From Escherichia coli (GTDB taxonomy: Bacteria > Pseudomonadota > Gammaproteobacteria > Enterobacterales > Enterobacteriaceae), in assembly GCF_003334255.1 (NCBI RefSeq), contig NZ_QOWU01000069.1: DNA of 21,251 bases. One strand, given 5' to 3'. Of this stretch, positions 8,497-15,272 are shown piece after piece (the first letter of the stretch is position 1; each line of letters starts with the position of its first letter). Position numbers and translations under genes: made by a program. The notes below the pieces were generated by a model. That model was not told where the DNA came from, did no database searches, and worked only from the letters and a program-made list of their open reading frames with translations.

Positions 8497-9158
8497 TGAT
8501 CAGGATTAGAGAGGTAAGTCATCACTATTCGCTGGGGCATAGCGCAGTCCCTGCGCTACAGAATATCTCGCTGGATATTGCTGCCGCTGAAATGGTGGCC
8601 ATTACCGGGCCTTCGGGCAGTGGAAAATCTACCTTATTAAATGTACTGGGATGTTTACTGACCCCACATTCGGGGGAGGTCTTTCTGCTGGAGAAGCTGA
8701 CGAATACGCTGAATGATTATCAGAAGTCGTTATTTCGGCGGGATAATATCAGCTTCATTTTTCAGTCGTTTAATCTATTACCGGTGCTATCGGTTGATGA
8801 AAATGTCGAGTATCCGTTGATTCTGCAGGGTGTCAGAAAAGTTGAACGTAAAAAACGTGTCGCAGAGATAGTCAATGATGTCGGTCTGATGGGATTTCGG
8901 CGGCATCGGCCGGACCAGTTATCCGGCGGTCAGCGACAGCGCGTCGCGATTGCCCGGGCGCTCATTACTGACCCGAAGTATGTGCTGGCGGATGAGCCGA
9001 CGGCTAATTTAGACAGTGAAAACAGCAAAATGATACTGAATCTTATTGCCGAGATGAATCACATACGCAAAACCGCATTTATTTTCGCTACCCATGACGC
9101 AAACGTATATAACTTCGCGCATCGTATGATCAATATGACTGACGGGAGAGTCATATGA
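8496..9158 (+). CDS. ABC transporter ATP-binding protein, LolD/MacB-type
   Basis: Walker A GPSGSGKST, ABC signature LSGGQRQRVAIARAL, Walker B VLADEPTANLD; start overlaps the previous stop (TGATG). Confidence 0.9.
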   Translation: MIRIREVSHHYSLGHSAVPALQNISLDIAAAEMVAITGPSGSGKSTLLNVLGCLLTPHSGEVFLLEKLTNTLNDYQKSLFRRDNISFIFQSFNLLPVLSVDENVEYPLILQGVRKVERKKRVAEIVNDVGLMGFRRHRPDQLSGGQRQRVAIARALITDPKYVLADEPTANLDSENSKMILNLIAEMNHIRKTAFIFATHDANVYNFAHRMINMTDGRVI

Positions 9159-10369
9159 CAACGGCATTGTTAGCGTTGCGCAATGTATTCAGAAATAAAC
9201 GCCGAACTTGCATTGTTTTCCTGTCCATCTCGGCAGCGATGAGCGCCATGATTGTGTTTGGCGGCTTTATTAATTACACCTTTGAAGGACTCCGGGAATC
9301 GACGATCAGAACCCAGCTGGGGCACTTTCAGATTGCCCAGCGCGGCTATTTCGAGCAGGGCGCATCGCAGAGCAGAGAGCTGCTCATTTCGTCACCTCAG
9401 CGGCTGGAAACAAAACTGCAAACGGTACCTCATATCAGCACGATCTCCAGAAGGCTTACCGGCTCCGGACTGATTACGGTTGGCCACGCTTCGCTGTCTG
9501 CCAAATTAATCGGTGTCATGCCGGAACGCGATGAGGAATTCTCGAATTATGAAATTGTGGTGGAAGGCAGGCAAATCGAACAGGGCCATGATGATGAGTG
9601 TGTGATTGGCAGCCAGCTGGCAAAAGGTCTCGGGGCGCAGGTGGGTGATACCGCCACCATACTCAGTTCGAGTTATGACGACGCAATCAACGCGGTAGAT
9701 TGTACCATTGTCGGTATCGTACGGACCCCGGCGAAAGAATATGACAAGGTTTATGTAAAAATGAACCTGGCTCATTTGCAGCGATTGCTTGATACCGAAA
9801 AAATTGAATATCTGGTGTTGTTACTGGATGAAACGGAAAACTTATCGATTGTTGCCAGCCAGCTGAGCACGGTAATAAGTGGTGAGTATGAGTACAGAGA
9901 GTGGACGCAGCTGGCAGAGTTTTATCAGGGCGTGGTTAACCTTTATACGTCAATATTCAGGCTTAGTTTCATCGTATTATCAATTATCGTCATTTTAAGT
10001 ATCACCAATACGATGAGCATGTCGGTTTTTGAACGCTTTCGCGAGATTGGCACATTGCGGGCAATGGGACAGACGCGGCTTTCCATCATCGGATTATTTG
10101 TAAGTGAAGGGATCATTATCGGTATCCTGGGCGGCATCATTGGCGTGCTGGCTGGAACAGGGTTTGCCCAGCTGATTAACCTCTCAGGGGGGATCGCGAT
10201 ACCTGCGCCACCGGGCATGTCCAGTGGCTATACTGCACGTATTAATATCGATTTCACTGTTATTTTATACTCTTTTATGATGTCGATGATAACTGCAACG
10301 GTATCTTCATTATATCCGGCCATTATTGCGGCCAGAAAAGATATTGTCGAGGCACTGACCCATATATGA
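9155..10369 (+). CDS. ABC transporter permease, FtsX-like (LolC/E / MacB-family)
   Basis: 404 aa; N-terminal transmembrane segment, large periplasmic domain, then three C-terminal transmembrane segments (LSFIVLSIIVILSI, IIIGILGGIIGVLAG, ILYSFMMSMITATV); ATG overlaps the ATPase stop (ATGA). Confidence 0.85.
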   Translation: MTTALLALRNVFRNKRRTCIVFLSISAAMSAMIVFGGFINYTFEGLRESTIRTQLGHFQIAQRGYFEQGASQSRELLISSPQRLETKLQTVPHISTISRRLTGSGLITVGHASLSAKLIGVMPERDEEFSNYEIVVEGRQIEQGHDDECVIGSQLAKGLGAQVGDTATILSSSYDDAINAVDCTIVGIVRTPAKEYDKVYVKMNLAHLQRLLDTEKIEYLVLLLDETENLSIVASQLSTVISGEYEYREWTQLAEFYQGVVNLYTSIFRLSFIVLSIIVILSITNTMSMSVFERFREIGTLRAMGQTRLSIIGLFVSEGIIIGILGGIIGVLAGTGFAQLINLSGGIAIPAPPGMSSGYTARINIDFTVILYSFMMSMITATVSSLYPAIIAARKDIVEALTHI

Positions 10370-11109
10370 AAAAACTGCTTACCATCTTCTTACTTTTATT
10401 GTTGTTTCCCACAGCATCAGTGACGGCTGAGAGCCCCGAGTTGACTCTTTCACCTGAAAAAATATTGACGCGGGTTGATACTATTCGTGCACCTGGCAGT
10501 GATTTTATTTTCACTGTTACAGCCGATGTAAATAATGGCGAGGTGATGAGTGAATACACCGTGAAAGTTAATAACAGCACGAAAAGTCTGGTGCTGTATA
10601 CCAAACCGGTAAAAAATAAAGGACGGGTAATCCTGTTAGATGACCGCAACATGTGGATATACATACCCGGTACCAGTCGGGCGATGAGAATATCCCCGCA
10701 ACAGCAACTGGTTGGCGCTGCCTCTAATGCCGATATTTCGCGAGTGGTCTTTAATATCGACTATCGTCCGCTATCTGCGGTGACAAAAAAAGAGCACGCT
10801 CGCGAGGTGATTGAGCTGGAGTTGCAGGCCAAAGAAGCCTCTGCGCCCTACAGAAAAGTGGTATTAATCGTCGATAAACACAGCTTTCAGCCGATTAAAG
10901 CAGATTTTTATGCACTGTCGGGGAAAAAATTAAAATCGATAGATTATCTTGAATATGCCCCCGTCCTGGGCGAGGTGCGTCCGGTTAAATTAGTGATTAG
11001 TGACAGTGTTAACACCAGCAAAACGACAACATTGACCTACAGCCATTTTTCACTGGAAAAAACGCCGGAAGCATTCTATCAGCCATCCTATCTTAACCGG
11101 GTAAGATAA
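10366..11109 (+). CDS. LolA-like periplasmic carrier (outer-membrane lipoprotein-sorting-protein family)
   Basis: Signal peptide MKKLLTIFLLLLLFPTASVTA without a lipobox; length and the RVILLDDRNMWIYIPG…RISP pattern match LolA-like proteins found next to ABC/FtsX exporters and in polyene-pigment clusters. Overlaps the permease stop. Confidence 0.5.
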   Translation: MKKLLTIFLLLLLFPTASVTAESPELTLSPEKILTRVDTIRAPGSDFIFTVTADVNNGEVMSEYTVKVNNSTKSLVLYTKPVKNKGRVILLDDRNMWIYIPGTSRAMRISPQQQLVGAASNADISRVVFNIDYRPLSAVTKKEHAREVIELELQAKEASAPYRKVVLIVDKHSFQPIKADFYALSGKKLKSIDYLEYAPVLGEVRPVKLVISDSVNTSKTTTLTYSHFSLEKTPEAFYQPSYLNRVR

Positions 11110-11130
11110 CAGGATAAGTCAGGAGACGTT

Positions 11131-12330
11131 ATGAGGGAGCTTGCTGGCAAACGACCATGGCGCGGATATGGATTATGCCTGCTGACGGCGCTCCCGCTGT
11201 TGGTCAATGCTGAGGGTGCTGATTTTGATTATCAGTTGCAAAGCGATCTGCGCAGCTATGTATATCAGGGAGAAAAATACAGAGATAGCCAGGATTTTAA
11301 TCTGTACTCTGACAATTTCGCGCAGCTCATGGTGAATTTCTTCTCCCGCTATCATTATCAGCGCCTTACGGTGCCCGTAAAAATAAGAGCCAGCGAAAAA
11401 TACTCTTTTGATAAACGTGATGATAAATCCGACCTGATAGTCGATGAGGCCTTTCTCGATTATTCTGCCACTGATACGCTTATTTTCAACCTTGGACGTA
11501 AACAGTTGGTTAATGGGGTGGCGATGGGAAATAACCCCACCGACTTTCTCAATGCTAATAAGTATCAGGATCGGCATCTGTCAGACCAGCAGCGCCGATC
11601 TGAGATAAAGGGGGATGATGTGGTTGGGGTCGTGAATTATTTTGCCTCATCATCTGTACAGTTTTACTATTTGCCGTCAGAAAATGCCAGCTGGCTCCAG
11701 TACGCCTGGAATATTCCATCAATGAATACCGATACCGGATTTTCCTGGTACCACGATGATATCAATGCTGTCGGTATCAACATCTCAACGACGTTTACGG
11801 ATAAGATTACGGGCTATATCGAGAATTCACTGTCTGATAAAAGAAACCGTTCGGTTATCGATGCGCAGGGGAATCTGCACAGTGAATCGGGTTTGTTTAC
11901 CGATCTGGTGCTGGGCTCACAATATACCTTTGATAACGGCATTAATATCAACGCAGAATACTGGTATAACCAACACGGCTATAGCAAAGAGGAGTATGAC
12001 GATATCTCTGCCGCTGTGGCTACGGGTAAAATAAAATACACTGATGCTTCCCGCTCTTTAAGTATGCGTAATCGGTATAAAAATAAACTGTTTTTTCGGC
12101 TGAGCGATATTCCGGTTAATGAAGATATCAGGCTGGAGCAGACCTTTATTCAGAGTTTAACGGATAATGGCTACTTTCTGCGGAGTACGGTTATTGGCCA
12201 GCTGTCGGATAATTCAACATTGCGTGTCAGCATGGAATTCTATCAGGGCAATGCGCAGAGCGAGTATGGTGGTAACCCAATCAATTACGGCGTGTTTTTG
12301 TCCTGGCAATATTTCTTGGAGAGTAACTGA
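11131..12330 (+). CDS. Putative outer-membrane (beta-rich) protein of unknown function
   Basis: AGGAG ribosome-binding site; signal peptide ending LLVNA-EGAD; composition rich in Y/N/S/T/G with alternating hydrophobic patterns; aromatic-rich C-terminal region (GVFLSWQYF). Confidence 0.45.
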   Translation: MRELAGKRPWRGYGLCLLTALPLLVNAEGADFDYQLQSDLRSYVYQGEKYRDSQDFNLYSDNFAQLMVNFFSRYHYQRLTVPVKIRASEKYSFDKRDDKSDLIVDEAFLDYSATDTLIFNLGRKQLVNGVAMGNNPTDFLNANKYQDRHLSDQQRRSEIKGDDVVGVVNYFASSSVQFYYLPSENASWLQYAWNIPSMNTDTGFSWYHDDINAVGINISTTFTDKITGYIENSLSDKRNRSVIDAQGNLHSESGLFTDLVLGSQYTFDNGININAEYWYNQHGYSKEEYDDISAAVATGKIKYTDASRSLSMRNRYKNKLFFRLSDIPVNEDIRLEQTFIQSLTDNGYFLRSTVIGQLSDNSTLRVSMEFYQGNAQSEYGGNPINYGVFLSWQYFLESN

Positions 12331-12332
12331 TT

Positions 12333-13166
12333 ATGGCATTTGCTTCGCATAACCCACAGCGTTATGACATTGGTGAGGATTGTTTCGCCCTTTATCATTC
12401 GGAATCACACAGTTTTGAGGTATTTCTTGGCAGTGAACGCGTGCCTTTCTTCTCAGCAGAAGTGGTAGATAAAATGCTCGGCGGCATGACAAAGATAGCG
12501 CATGGCGAGCTGGACTGTTCATCCGCACTCCATTTCTTTGTGTTGCGTTCCGCTTTCCCCGGTATTTTTAATCTTGGTGCCGATCTTGATCTGTTTCACT
12601 CGTTAGCCGCGGAGAAAAACAGAGATGAACTTCGTCTCTATGCTGACAAGTGCGTTGACCTTATCCATCACCTTTCTCACGGCATCAACAATGCGATAAC
12701 GACCGTGGCGCTGGTAGAAGGAAAATGTTTTGGCGGCGGCTTTGAGGCGGTACTGGCCTGCGATTACCTGATTGCCAGTGAGTCCGCTTTATTCTCGTTC
12801 CCCGAAATCAAGCTGGGTATTTTTCCCGGTATGGGAGCCGCGTCGGTTATGTCGCGGGTACTGAATAAAGGGGATTACCAGCGAATTTTCCTTTCGGGTG
12901 AGATGTTTTCCGCGCAGCAGCTCTTTGATATGGGCCTGGTGAGCCAGCTGGTTCCCGACGGGCAGGGAGAGGCGGTATTAAGGCAGTTCCTGAAGCGTAT
13001 GAATAGCGCCGCGTGTTATCAGTTATCCGCTATTTATAAATACAATAAGCGGCTACCAGTGTCGGAGCTGCGCTTTTTTGCTGAGCAGTGGGTAGAGGGG
13101 GTAATGGATTTAACCCGGCGGCAACTCGCGCTGATTGCTTATGCGGCAACGCAACAGAGAGAATAA
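12333..13166 (+). CDS. Enoyl-CoA hydratase/isomerase (crotonase-family) protein
   Basis: Crotonase core GKCFGGGFEAVLACDYLIASESALFSFPEIKLGIFPGMGA; starts 2 bp after the previous stop. Confidence 0.85.
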   Translation: MAFASHNPQRYDIGEDCFALYHSESHSFEVFLGSERVPFFSAEVVDKMLGGMTKIAHGELDCSSALHFFVLRSAFPGIFNLGADLDLFHSLAAEKNRDELRLYADKCVDLIHHLSHGINNAITTVALVEGKCFGGGFEAVLACDYLIASESALFSFPEIKLGIFPGMGAASVMSRVLNKGDYQRIFLSGEMFSAQQLFDMGLVSQLVPDGQGEAVLRQFLKRMNSAACYQLSAIYKYNKRLPVSELRFFAEQWVEGVMDLTRRQLALIAYAATQQRE

Positions 13167-13186
13167 GTACCAGGCGGGGTAGGCCC

Positions 13187-14480
13187 CTGAGGAATCCCCA
13201 GAAAAATGAGACAGGCATAGTGTGTTGTGATCTAATTGATTGCGCTAACAATTTCAAGGAAATCACCACTATGCCTGCGCGCTCATTATGCCGAAAATTT
13301 CTTAAAAATATACTGGAACCTCTGCATCTTTACCGTCAAAACGCACTGATTGACGCAACCAGTGCTGTAATAAATGGTGCATCTCTTACGCTTACCAGTA
13401 TCGGACGCCATTTAACTGGAACTGCATCGGTTAAAAATAAAATAAAGCGTATGGATAGACTGCTGGGGAATCCCCATCTGCAAAATGAGGTTCCCATAAT
13501 TTTTCAACGTGTTACGCAGAAAATTACGCAGGGAATGTCCCGTGCTGTGATACTCATTGACTGGAGTGCTTATCATGCTTCGCGTTTCCAGCTCCTACGG
13601 GCAAGCCTGGCATGTGATGGTCGCTCTTTACCATTGATGAGTTGTATCGTTCCATCATCACAGACGGCAAATGCTGAAGTGCATGAACGTTTTATTGGGT
13701 CGCTTGCTGAGTGCTTTACACCTGAAACTAATGTCATTGTTATTACGGATGCCGGTTTTCAGGGGCGATGGTTTCAACAGGTTAGTTCTCGTGGCTGGAC
13801 TTATATTTGTCGGGTACTGGGTAACCACTATTACAATGTTGGTGATGGGTGGGAAAAGGTACTGGATTCAGGAAAAAAGGCATCAACAACAGCAAGTTAT
13901 CTTGGTAAAGGTCTGCTGGGACGAAGTAAAGAAGCACAACACGAAGACTATTTTTACCTTTATAAAAGCAAACCTAAAGGCCGTAAATTTAAACGTTCAA
14001 AAGAAAGATCTACTAGGGCATCGGTGACAGCTAAAGCCCAGACAGCGGGGAAATCACCCTGGTTTATTTTTACAAATAGCACTGAATTTTCCCCTAAACA
14101 GGTGATGAGGTTATACAGCCGCAGAATGCAAATCGAGCAAAATTTCAGGGATGAAAAAAATCCTCGCTGGGGATTTGGGCTAAGGTTTGGAGCCAGCTAT
14201 TCAACTGAGCGGGTCACAGTGTTGAGCCTGATCGCGACGTTAGCCAGTATCATTATGTGGTTAAGTGGTTTCAGTCTTGAAAACAAGGGATACATCATAA
14301 ATATCAGGCAAATACAGTGAAACACAGGCGAGTCATTTCGTTGTTAAAGTTGGCGGAGAATGTATTTCGACATTCTCCGCTCATATTGAAAACCCTGTCG
14401 CTGGACTCGGGGTTGAAGAAATTACAGCAACGGTATATCGATATGATATTGGTTTACTGAGTTTTCTGGGGATCCCTCAG
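13187..14480 (+). mobile_element. IS4-family (IS10-like) insertion sequence, about 1.29 kb, apparently intact ends
   Basis: Left end CTGAGGAATCCCCAGAAAAA (from 13187) and inverted right end (reverse complement of 14461-14480 is CTGAGGGATCCCCAGAAAAC); both resemble the IS10 terminus CTGATGAATCCCC. Flanked by a direct duplication GGTAGGCCC (13178-13186 and 14482-14490; boundary ambiguous by 1 bp). Confidence 0.8.
13271..14320 (+). CDS. IS4-family (IS10-like) DDE transposase
   Basis: ATG at 13271 (MPARSL...); motifs shared with the IS10 transposase: IKRMDRLLGN, ILIDWS, LRASLACDGRS, TDAGF, LYKSKPKGRK, RRMQIEQNFRD. The ORF-track start at 13088 is an upstream extension across the IS end. Product is shorter than the IS10 transposase; about 160 bp with a hairpin follow the stop. 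Confidence 0.85.
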   Translation: MPARSLCRKFLKNILEPLHLYRQNALIDATSAVINGASLTLTSIGRHLTGTASVKNKIKRMDRLLGNPHLQNEVPIIFQRVTQKITQGMSRAVILIDWSAYHASRFQLLRASLACDGRSLPLMSCIVPSSQTANAEVHERFIGSLAECFTPETNVIVITDAGFQGRWFQQVSSRGWTYICRVLGNHYYNVGDGWEKVLDSGKKASTTASYLGKGLLGRSKEAQHEDYFYLYKSKPKGRKFKRSKERSTRASVTAKAQTAGKSPWFIFTNSTEFSPKQVMRLYSRRMQIEQNFRDEKNPRWGFGLRFGASYSTERVTVLSLIATLASIIMWLSGFSLENKGYIINIRQIQ

Positions 14481-14489
14481 GGGTAGGCC

Positions 14490-14744
14490 CCGCAGCAGCG
14501 GCTTGCTTTGGGATTGTCTCGCTGCCAGCCGCTCAGTTGCAGGGAGGCCGCGTATTGTTTCTTCGATTGCGTACAGTTCGCCGATACGTTTCAGGGCTTC
14601 CTCTGCTGTGGATGCACTGGTTGCCGGGCTAAAACTGGGGTAACGGAAATTTCGGCGGTTCCGGCGTAGAACCCCGATATGTTCCGAACCGTCGCGGCCG
14701 TCTGGTTTGCTCATAGTTTTACCGGGGCATAAAATATGGTGTCT
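14490..14744 (-). pseudogene. IS66-family transposase (TnpC-like) internal fragment
   Basis: Minus-strand translation …HIGVLRRNRRNF…EEALKRIGELYAIEETIRGLPATERLAARQSQSKPLL resembles the conserved post-DDE region of IS66 TnpC (LYAIE…IRG…ERL…RQ…S.PL); only about 80 codons, cut at the lower end by the IS10-like insertion. Confidence 0.5.
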
Positions 14745-14777: not shown

Positions 14778-15272
14778 ATGAGTGAATTTTATTCAAGGGC
14801 AGCAACTGTGGCAGACATGCCATTTATCATGGGTGAGTTCGAAGACGGCGCACGCAAAGGTCACTTCTACGAAGAGGTCCTCACATCAAATGTTGGTGAA
14901 ACCTTTGAACAGCAGCTCAGGCTGGCAATCAAGGCGAACGAGCAGGGCCAATACACCGGGCATTTTATCTACATCCTGCTGCGACGTTCTGATGACAAAA
15001 AAATAGGACTAATCTGGTTCTGTGACGTACGCGATCCAACCGGTGTGCCACGACTTGAGCTCCGTGCCGTCAGTATTGTCAAAGAGCTTCGCGGGAAAGG
15101 CTATGGGTCAATGCTTGTGTCCGAAATGCTCGAATCAAACCCTGGCTGGCCAATGATGGCGAGGTGCTACGTCAAATCCTCGCAAATGGCCGACATGCTA
15201 AAACGCAGAGGTTTTTACCTTTTTGGCACGTCACCCAAAGGCACGCAGATGCTGTTTCGCGACCCAAAGTAA
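14778..15272 (+). CDS. GNAT-family N-acetyltransferase
   Basis: 164 aa; AAGGA ribosome-binding site; acetyl-CoA binding motif A-like LRGKGYGSMLVSEML; substrate unknown. Confidence 0.7.
   Translation: MSEFYSRAATVADMPFIMGEFEDGARKGHFYEEVLTSNVGETFEQQLRLAIKANEQGQYTGHFIYILLRRSDDKKIGLIWFCDVRDPTGVPRLELRAVSIVKELRGKGYGSMLVSEMLESNPGWPMMARCYVKSSQMADMLKRRGFYLFGTSPKGTQMLFRDPK

Follow-up and report, generated by a model that had tools for sequence, protein, structure and literature searches.

The window analysed here is a 21,251-nucleotide stretch of Escherichia coli DNA (contig NZ_QOWU01000069.1 of assembly GCF_003334255.1), and its positions 13187-14480 hold an insertion sequence (IS) of 1294 bp that belongs to the IS4 family and carries IS10-type ends. 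The reading that we favor, with a probability of about 0.9, is that this is a single, complete, dead IS4-family copy of IS10 type from the enterobacterial ISEc60 clade, which was inserted into a GC-rich hairpin with a 10-bp target duplication and was then frameshifted. It is an ordinary, already annotated, inactivated IS, where RefSeq labels 13271-14460 "IS4 family transposase, frameshifted", and an earlier sequence-only reading of the window was correct in recognizing an IS at this place.

Identity and extent of the element

The features that define the element are as follows.

13187-14480, + strand: complete insertion sequence, IS10-like, ISEc60 clade; 1294 bp here, 1295 bp when intact.
13187-13205, + strand: left terminal inverted repeat, CTGAGGAATCCCCAGAAAA, the counterpart of the IS10 outside end (which reads CTGATGAATCCCC).
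14462-14480, - strand: right terminal inverted repeat, CTGAGGGATCCCCAGAAAA, with GATC at 14471-14474 (nt 7-10 from the tip), like the IS10 inside end.
13271-14320, + strand: truncated transposase open reading frame (ORF) of 349 amino acids (aa), 340 native plus 9 out-of-frame residues, with D97, D160 and E289, the YREK motif at residues 282-296, and matches to NF033591 and PF01609.

The two terminal inverted repeats match at 18 of 19 bases, and GGGGATCCCTCAG within the right end is invariant among 25 family tails; the window contains no further copy or fragment of these ends. The IS10 subgroup is described as having lengths of 1200-1350 bp, 5′-CT ends and 9-bp direct repeats (PMC2266710, Table 1). 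The size of 1294 bp and the 5′-CT ends (CTGAGG… at both ends) fall within this description, while the direct repeat does not, being 10 bp here and at 22 family sites. A length of 10 bp does agree with a duplication of about one helical turn, as is given for the IS4 family as a whole (PMC2266710).

All protein comparisons were made with one A restored at the frameshift site. The repaired 396-aa protein scores 346 bits against NCBIfam NF033591 (cut-off 152) and matches the Pfam domain DDE_Tnp_1 (PF01609) with E = 2.5e-18. Its catalytic residues D97, D160 and E289 align with the IS10 motifs DWS, DAGF and QIEE and are separated by 62 and 128 residues, within the D(60-110)D(100-150)E range of the IS4 family (PMC2266710), and the Y-(2)-R-(3)-E-(6)-K signature is present as YSRRMQIEQNFRDEK at residues 282-296. 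Compared directly with the IS10/ISVsa5 transposase, the repaired protein is 36% identical over 357 aa (E = 1e-74, a single pairwise comparison). The DDE and YREK motifs, the CTGA ends, the GATC at nt 7-10 of the right end, this 36% identity and a 5′ regulatory layout matching that of IS10 together bear out the earlier assignment of the element as IS10-like.

Over the element and its flanks, the window is 100% identical to a plasmid of 99,817 bp from E. coli G6/7 and G8, which came from faeces of healthy people, and the element corresponds at 100% identity to NZ_CP060062.1 positions 23095-24388 (record position minus 9908 gives the window position).

The target duplication

With CTGA...TCAG as the termini, the duplication is placed as follows.

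13177-13186, no strand: left copy of the 10-bp target duplication, GGGTAGGCCC.
14481-14490, no strand: right copy of the 10-bp target duplication, GGGTAGGCCC.

A flanking direct repeat is present, as the sequence-only reading had said, but its length had been given as 9 bp. The string that is identical on both flanks is 12 nt long, GGGGTAGGCCCC, at 13176-13187 and 14480-14491. Because it takes in the element's own first C and last G, the boundary cannot be fixed from the window copy alone. We therefore turn to the family, for which ends and flanks were gathered from every copy that could be retrieved, giving 36 distinct insertion sites. An exact 10-bp direct repeat abuts CTGAGG…CCTCAG at 22 of these 36 sites. 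Several of these duplications have T or C as their first base, or G or T as their last (TGGTTATCCC, CGGATGCCCG, CAGCCTAGCT, CCCCACGGGG, CGCCCCGGTG), and this variety at the edges means that no extra G or C belongs to the element and that the C before CTGAGG is flank. As a control, the same script run on a real IS10 copy (locus L027, which replaced a first, truncated IS10 locus, L026) returned 9 bp, GGCCAAGCT.

The ambiguity in the single copy does leave room for an alternative in which the element is of true IS10 type, its duplication is the canonical one of 9 bp (GGTAGGCCC) and one end has an extra base (CTGAGG…CCTCAGG or CCTGAGG…CCTCAG), the more so because 9-bp repeats are those described for the IS10 subgroup (PMC2266710, Table 1) and because a distant relative (L037) shows 9 bp. 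We nevertheless consider this highly improbable. The right end cannot include a further G, given right flanks that start with T or C (L008, L029, L036, L043, L079), nor the left end a further C, given left flanks that end in G or T while the end itself remains CTGAGG (L036, L043, L079, L142); the 10-bp boundaries are exact at 22 sites. A 9-bp duplication with a shifted boundary was accordingly rejected on these family sites with other bases at the critical positions. In addition, the 9-bp copies proposed earlier (13178-13186 and 14482-14490) cannot both abut the ends, leaving the G at 14481 unaccounted for. The 9-bp value thus belongs to the IS10 control and not to the clade, and the duplication in the window is GGGTAGGCCC, 10 bp.

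The frameshifted transposase

Two features describe the break in the transposase gene.

14285-14286, + strand: frameshift site, an AA run that is AAA in ISEc60 and other intact relatives; a 1-nt deletion (alignment column 1126).
14281-14460, + strand: -1 frame with the real C-terminus (…IHHKYQANTVKHRRVISLLKLAENVFRHSP…LVY), open from 14281, stop codon at 14458-14460.

The truncated ORF ends with the TGA at 14318-14320, 160 bp before the right end, which is the distance reported in the sequence-only reading, although the product has 349 aa and not 350. In the nucleotide alignment the window reads GAAAAC-AAGGG against GAAAACAAAGGG in ISEc60, and adding one A back produces a 396-aa protein that is 88% identical to the ISEc60 transposase. 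The frameshift that had been suspected earlier is hence real, with alignment to relatives placing one missing A at 14285-14286. The +1 ORF at 14301-14486 that had been pointed out alongside it is open as claimed, but it is not the frame of the transposase C-terminus, which lies in the -1 frame at 14281-14460 and whose C-terminal stretch aligns to the IS10 C-terminal region QANTVRNRNVLSTVRLGMEVLRHS. Among the 120 relatives listed (50-95% identity), every intact one has a single ORF of 396-397 aa, which disposes of the suggestion that the transposase might be a shorter family variant. The window copy is a pseudogene of an IS4-family member and not a different architecture. After insertion, the AAA run at codon 339 lost one A, and the transposase thereby lacks its final 56 residues, which are conserved.

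Could the split frame be functional? Truncated transposases of IS50 work as inhibitors, a precedent for treating the 349-aa protein as an inhibitor or as a short variant that occurs naturally. The other form that such a reading could take is programmed -1 ribosomal frameshifting, where the break lies in an A-rich stretch (GAAAACAAGGG) and the -1 frame, open from 14281, encodes the conserved C-terminus. We find either form barely credible. All intact relatives carry one 396-397-aa ORF, the break is a simple 1-nt deletion relative to other family members, and sister copies decay further, for example by another 1-nt deletion in L148. Moreover, a single ORF without frameshifting is, together with the DDE spacing and the YREK signature, a defining feature of the IS4 family (PMC2266710), from which the window copy departs in being split by the 1-nt deletion at 14285-14286. 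Because the intact relatives are all single-ORF, and because a reading of 14281-14318 finds no X XXY YYZ slippery heptamer, programmed frameshifting was ruled out and the break is read as a degenerative mutation.

At the left end of these elements, the transposase frame is free of stop codons ahead of the ATG; in the window, this open frame starts at 13088 (13088-13270). As a result, gene callers often fuse the transposase to an upstream gene, and the public records include such chimeras of 557-680 aa named "aldehyde dehydrogenase A" or "ydbC" (proteins P0007-P0013).

The target site and insertion preference

One feature marks what the element interrupted.

13174-13186, + strand: left half of the pre-insertion hairpin GCGGGG-TAGG-CCCCGC, whose 3′ arm resumes at 14487-14492 (by reconstruction and folding).

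The reconstructed target, GCGGGGTAGGCCCCGC, begins 7 nt after the crotonase stop codon upstream of the element, and an uninterrupted site would be expected to read …CAGGCGGGGTAGGCCCCGCAGC…. This arrangement recurs across the clade. Target sites were surveyed at L003-L025, L029-L036, L043, L065, L079, L087 and L142, plus the window, and their consensus over 22 sites is C-GGGG-N4-CCCC-G, A-rich before and T-rich after, with the duplication centered on the loop. Symmetric positions in the target are complementary at 13-19 of the 22 sites, against about 5.5 expected by chance. Among the targets are many classic intrinsic terminators, such as GGCGGGGAAAATCCCCGCCTTTTT and AAAAAAGGGGCTTAGGCCCCTTTTTT, and several insertions adjoin the toxin genes hok, hokE or ibs. 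The hairpin preference is the most economical explanation for finding the element directly behind an operon, 20 nt past a stop codon. In this light, an ancestral active copy (1295 bp, with a 396-aa DDE transposase) would have moved in by cut-and-paste transposition, as is usual for IS10 and IS50, entering the loop of the GC-rich hairpin GCGGGG-TAGG-CCCCGC, where staggered cuts 10 bp apart would have generated the duplication GGGTAGGCCC.

Across the surveyed family loci, elements of the ISEc60 clade enter GC-rich hairpins almost exclusively. In E. coli CFSAN029787, two ISEc60 copies (L003:2001-3294 and 3633-4926) with the same flanks occupy consecutive ibs/sib repeat units. A different genome (L017/L018) has two copies head to tail, 10 bp apart, with outer flanks GGGATTTTCC and the shared spacer GGGATTTACC, which suggests that a second insertion entered the half-hairpin regenerated at an existing junction.

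Age and present state

The sequence-only reading took the intact ends and the duplication as signs of a fairly recent transposition, which the carriers of the same locus do not support. Loci were retrieved via the identical crotonase protein (indexed in 623 blocks of the assembly collection), and all six, drawn from different assemblies and metagenomes, share the same insertion, at the same site and with the same frameshift; two of the six have mutated further, one by a 1-nt deletion (L148) and one by a single-base substitution. Since insertion and frameshift are common to all sampled carriers, intact ends and an intact duplication are no sign of a recent event, and the window element is an old, fixed, decaying, dead relic. 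Complete E. coli genomes hold no copies at least 99% identical beyond two copies of this plasmid record, so the window copy is very probably immobile and passively inherited with the plasmid island.

The 5′ stem-loop, GATC sites and promoters

Two features lie at or upstream of the transposase start codon.

13208-13278, - strand: RNA-OUT-like antisense stem-loop over the transposase start codon (ATG 13271-13273), outer stem 13212-13222 with 13267-13277.
13229-13232, no strand: GATC invariant in 28 family members, overlapping a candidate -10 element TCTAAT (13231-13236), 42 nt before the ATG (41 in IS10).

For the - strand of 13208-13278 the folding energy is -32.7 kcal/mol (z = -5.1), and the pairing is conserved, with 94.4% of cells paired over 28 distinct family members compared with about 30% when the partners are slid. 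Five pairs show compensatory change, one of which uses all four Watson-Crick combinations (AU 11, CG 6, UA 4, GC 2). In the shuffle test, none of 500 shuffles reaches the observed value in four of the five measures, and 13 of 500 do so in the fifth, the number of pairs in which both sides have changed. The pairing includes 55 G.U cells on the - strand and 14 on the + strand, a balance in favor of the - strand. We interpret the stem-loop as functionally analogous, though diverged, to RNA-OUT and to fold-back inhibition; it would sequester the transposase start codon in transcripts reading through from the operon. We infer both antisense control and Dam control of the element, where TCTAAT may serve as the -10 of the transposase promoter. 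A scan for consensus promoters and terminators gave counts equal to chance and no site at the IS ends, and in an Rfam scan of the element no match reached its gathering score, those to miRNA and snoRNA families being noise.

The insertion might alternatively have been kept for its effect on its neighbors, whether by replacing a terminator, by supplying an outward promoter, or by driving the downstream GNAT gene (14778-15272). IS10 has an outward promoter, pOUT, and the CATAAT hexamer at 13290-13285 on the - strand, read from the sequence, is placed as expected for a pOUT analogue. The element also follows the last operon gene by 20 nt, splits a GC-rich hairpin, and is fixed in all sampled carriers. 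However, a transcript of the pOUT kind would head in antisense for the 3′ end of the operon and not for a gene; no T-run follows the target hairpin, which was thus not an obvious intrinsic terminator; promoter-like sites are no commoner than chance, with none at the ends; and clonal inheritance of a dead element explains the fixation equally well. We regard retention for such an effect as unlikely, and hold to the reading of a dead, passively carried copy.

Several points weigh against that reading or its parts. The truncated transposase would have lost its activity, judging from the conservation of the 56 missing residues; no solved structure was matched by sequence, and the missing C-terminus thus cannot be mapped on the Tn5 transposase. 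The RNA-OUT model (Rfam RF00240) matches 13208-13278 on the - strand over its full length but at 16.3 bits, below the gathering score of 41, where real IS10 scores 98.8 bits, and no sigma-70 consensus promoter for an antisense transcript was found at the thresholds used. Finally, the pre-insertion hairpin is known by reconstruction, and no empty site turned up when the flanks were compared with complete E. coli genomes or the exact crotonase protein with the assembly collection, every carrier having the insertion.

An 11-bp hairpin within the transposase gene

A second candidate structure lies in the detached part of the gene.

14353-14380, - strand: perfect 11-bp hairpin, 14353-14363 with 14370-14380, 6-nt loop ATTTCG; transposase codons 362-370 (AENV-x-RHSP).

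The perfect 11-bp stem that had been noticed at this position is present, and it folds at -21.5 kcal/mol with z = -5.5, being stable on both strands in the window copy (z = -5.5 and -6.3). Comparison with the equivalent region in 24 relatives separates the strands. On the + strand, A.C mismatches reduce the pairing to 78.8%, and one Photorhabdus copy has no fold at all (z = -0.25); the - strand retains its helix through G.U pairs, with 93.9% paired and the same Photorhabdus copy still at -16.1 kcal/mol (z = -3.1). Part of this bias is unavoidable, since G or T occupies the third codon positions of the arms, and double compensatory changes are absent among the relatives. Third-position entropy is 0.91, 0.59 and 0.94 bits at the four-fold sites Ala362, Arg367 and Pro370, compared with a median of 1.53 bits over 110 conserved four- or six-fold columns, which places these three among the six lowest of the sites that are neither Leu nor Ser. 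This pattern suggests nucleotide-level selection for an antisense-strand structure at 14353-14380. Two other roles for the hairpin were rejected: it is not conserved as a + strand mRNA element, where pairing decays in the relatives, and it is not an intrinsic terminator, with no U-run following on either strand.

Genomic surroundings

The features flanking the element are these.

12333-13166, + strand: crotonase/enoyl-CoA hydratase gene, last of the upstream operon; stop codon at 13164-13166, 20 nt before the IS.
14493-14614, - strand: 122-bp internal fragment of an IS66-family transposase gene, 96.7% identical to an IS66-family gene on a Serratia grimesii plasmid; NF033517 at 33.9 bits.

The distance of about 20 bp between the crotonase stop and the insertion, as stated in the sequence-only reading, holds at 20 nt. 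Its proposal that the element sits inside an IS66-like remnant does not survive, with homology on the right flank and none on the left. When the two flanks were joined and searched against plasmids, DNA homology to intact transposase genes of the IS66 family was confined to 14493-14614, with abrupt breaks on both sides, and the 20 nt that separate the IS from the crotonase stop had no IS66 homology. As the right copy of the duplication ends at 14490, the IS lies 2 nt outside the IS66 fragment, adjoining it and not interrupting it. The RefSeq IS66 pseudogene call (14484-14624) goes slightly beyond these limits of DNA homology.

The upstream operon (about 1970-13166, + strand) encodes an SDR, an ACP, a FabZ-like dehydratase, a KAS-like protein, a PfkB kinase, a FeeM-type N-acyl amino acid synthase, an ABC exporter, a LolA-like protein, the crotonase, and a predicted protein of 399 aa with a signal-peptide-like N-terminus. 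It looks like a plasmid-borne pathway that makes and exports an acylated lipid or amino acid, and the indexing of its crotonase in 623 blocks indicates that the cluster is common. Upstream of the operon, in transposon debris where the RefSeq table has no feature, the Rfam Group II intron model RF00029 (catalytic domain) matches 691-767 on the - strand with 41.8 bits (gathering score 40; E = 2.6e-5), which is probably an intron remnant.

Implications

For the window itself the element has little import and is chiefly a marker of the history of the plasmid island. What counts for annotation are three corrections: a duplication of 10 bp, a transposase C-terminus carried by the -1 frame, and an IS66 remnant that forms a scrap of its own, 122 bp long. 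The target preference of the clade and the hairpin conserved on one strand are leads of modest weight that reach past the original observation. Tentatively, and with less than even confidence, we propose that the ISEc60 clade is a distinct IS10-related lineage that homes on cGGGG-N4-CCCCg hairpins with 10-bp duplications and carries an antisense-only hairpin in codons 362-370, neither of which we found described. If so, hairpin homing would account for the accumulation of copies behind genes and beside hok/ibs toxin loci, and the hairpin in codons 362-370 would point to a second antisense RNA or to a barrier to transcription from the inside end. If confirmed experimentally, a preference for terminator-like hairpins predicts landing at operon 3′ ends and beside small toxin genes, and the clade would provide a natural contrast to IS10 for a change of target choice and cut spacing within one transposase lineage.

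Comparison with known systems

The closest named relative is ISEc60 (named as in the NCBI annotation, WP_001111632.1), at 85.4% nucleotide and 88% protein identity. Under the ISfinder convention for the same IS, about 90% DNA and 95% protein identity, these values would make the window element a different IS. The two share their length class (1294 bp), the terminal 19 nt, differing only beyond nt 19, a 396-aa transposase, the 10-bp duplication, the GC-hairpin target, the 5′ stem-loop and the 3′ hairpin. They differ in that ISEc60 reaches at least 35 copies in some E. coli genomes, whereas the window copy is single and frameshifted. The two papers found to use the name ISEc60 do so only in passing. 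Closer still in sequence are two intact copies of 1295 bp with a 396-aa ORF, relative to which the window copy lacks one A: a copy of an unnamed IS in Klebsiella pneumoniae (P0001; L012:2312-3606; 94.3% nucleotide and 95% protein identity) and a plasmid copy from a sequencing run (L013; 93.6% and 94%). Both have 10-bp duplications in GC hairpins (GGGATGCCCC and GGGGAGACCC), and the 3′ hairpin is identical. A decayed chromosomal copy in three E. coli strains is 89% identical at the nucleotide level. A pattern scan with one genome per species finds the left end in many Enterobacterales, including Klebsiella, Salmonella arizonae and diarizonae, Photorhabdus, Xenorhabdus, Pantoea, Kosakonia, Serratia and Pectobacterium.

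IS10 (ISVsa5, the IS of Tn10) shares the overall design, with CTGA…TCAG ends, a GAATCCCC / GATCCCC core and the DDE and YREK motifs. The first 13 nt of its outside and inside ends are matched at 11-12 positions, GATC stands at nt 7-10 of the inside end and again 41-42 nt before the ATG, and the 5′ end of the antisense stem-loop lies 7 nt past the A of the ATG. In contrast, IS10 is 1329 bp long, encodes a 402-aa transposase and makes a 9-bp duplication, and the left end of the window element is about 23 nt shorter. The targets differ as well, being GGG-N4-CCC here and GCTNAGC, with 9 bp duplicated, in Tn10 (PMC2577343, Table 1). In target choice only, the likeness is to IS231A of Bacillus thuringiensis, with its target GGGN5CCC and 11-bp duplication, GGGNNNNNCCC (PMC2577343, Table 1). 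Both use a palindromic GGG…CCC flanked by A/T-rich DNA and a duplication of about one helical turn. IS231A nevertheless belongs to another subgroup, with CAT ends and a length of at least 1450 bp (PMC2266710, Table 1), and combines an N5 spacer with 11 bp where the ISEc60 clade combines N4 with 10 bp. In its target pattern, the clade resembles IS231A more than Tn10.

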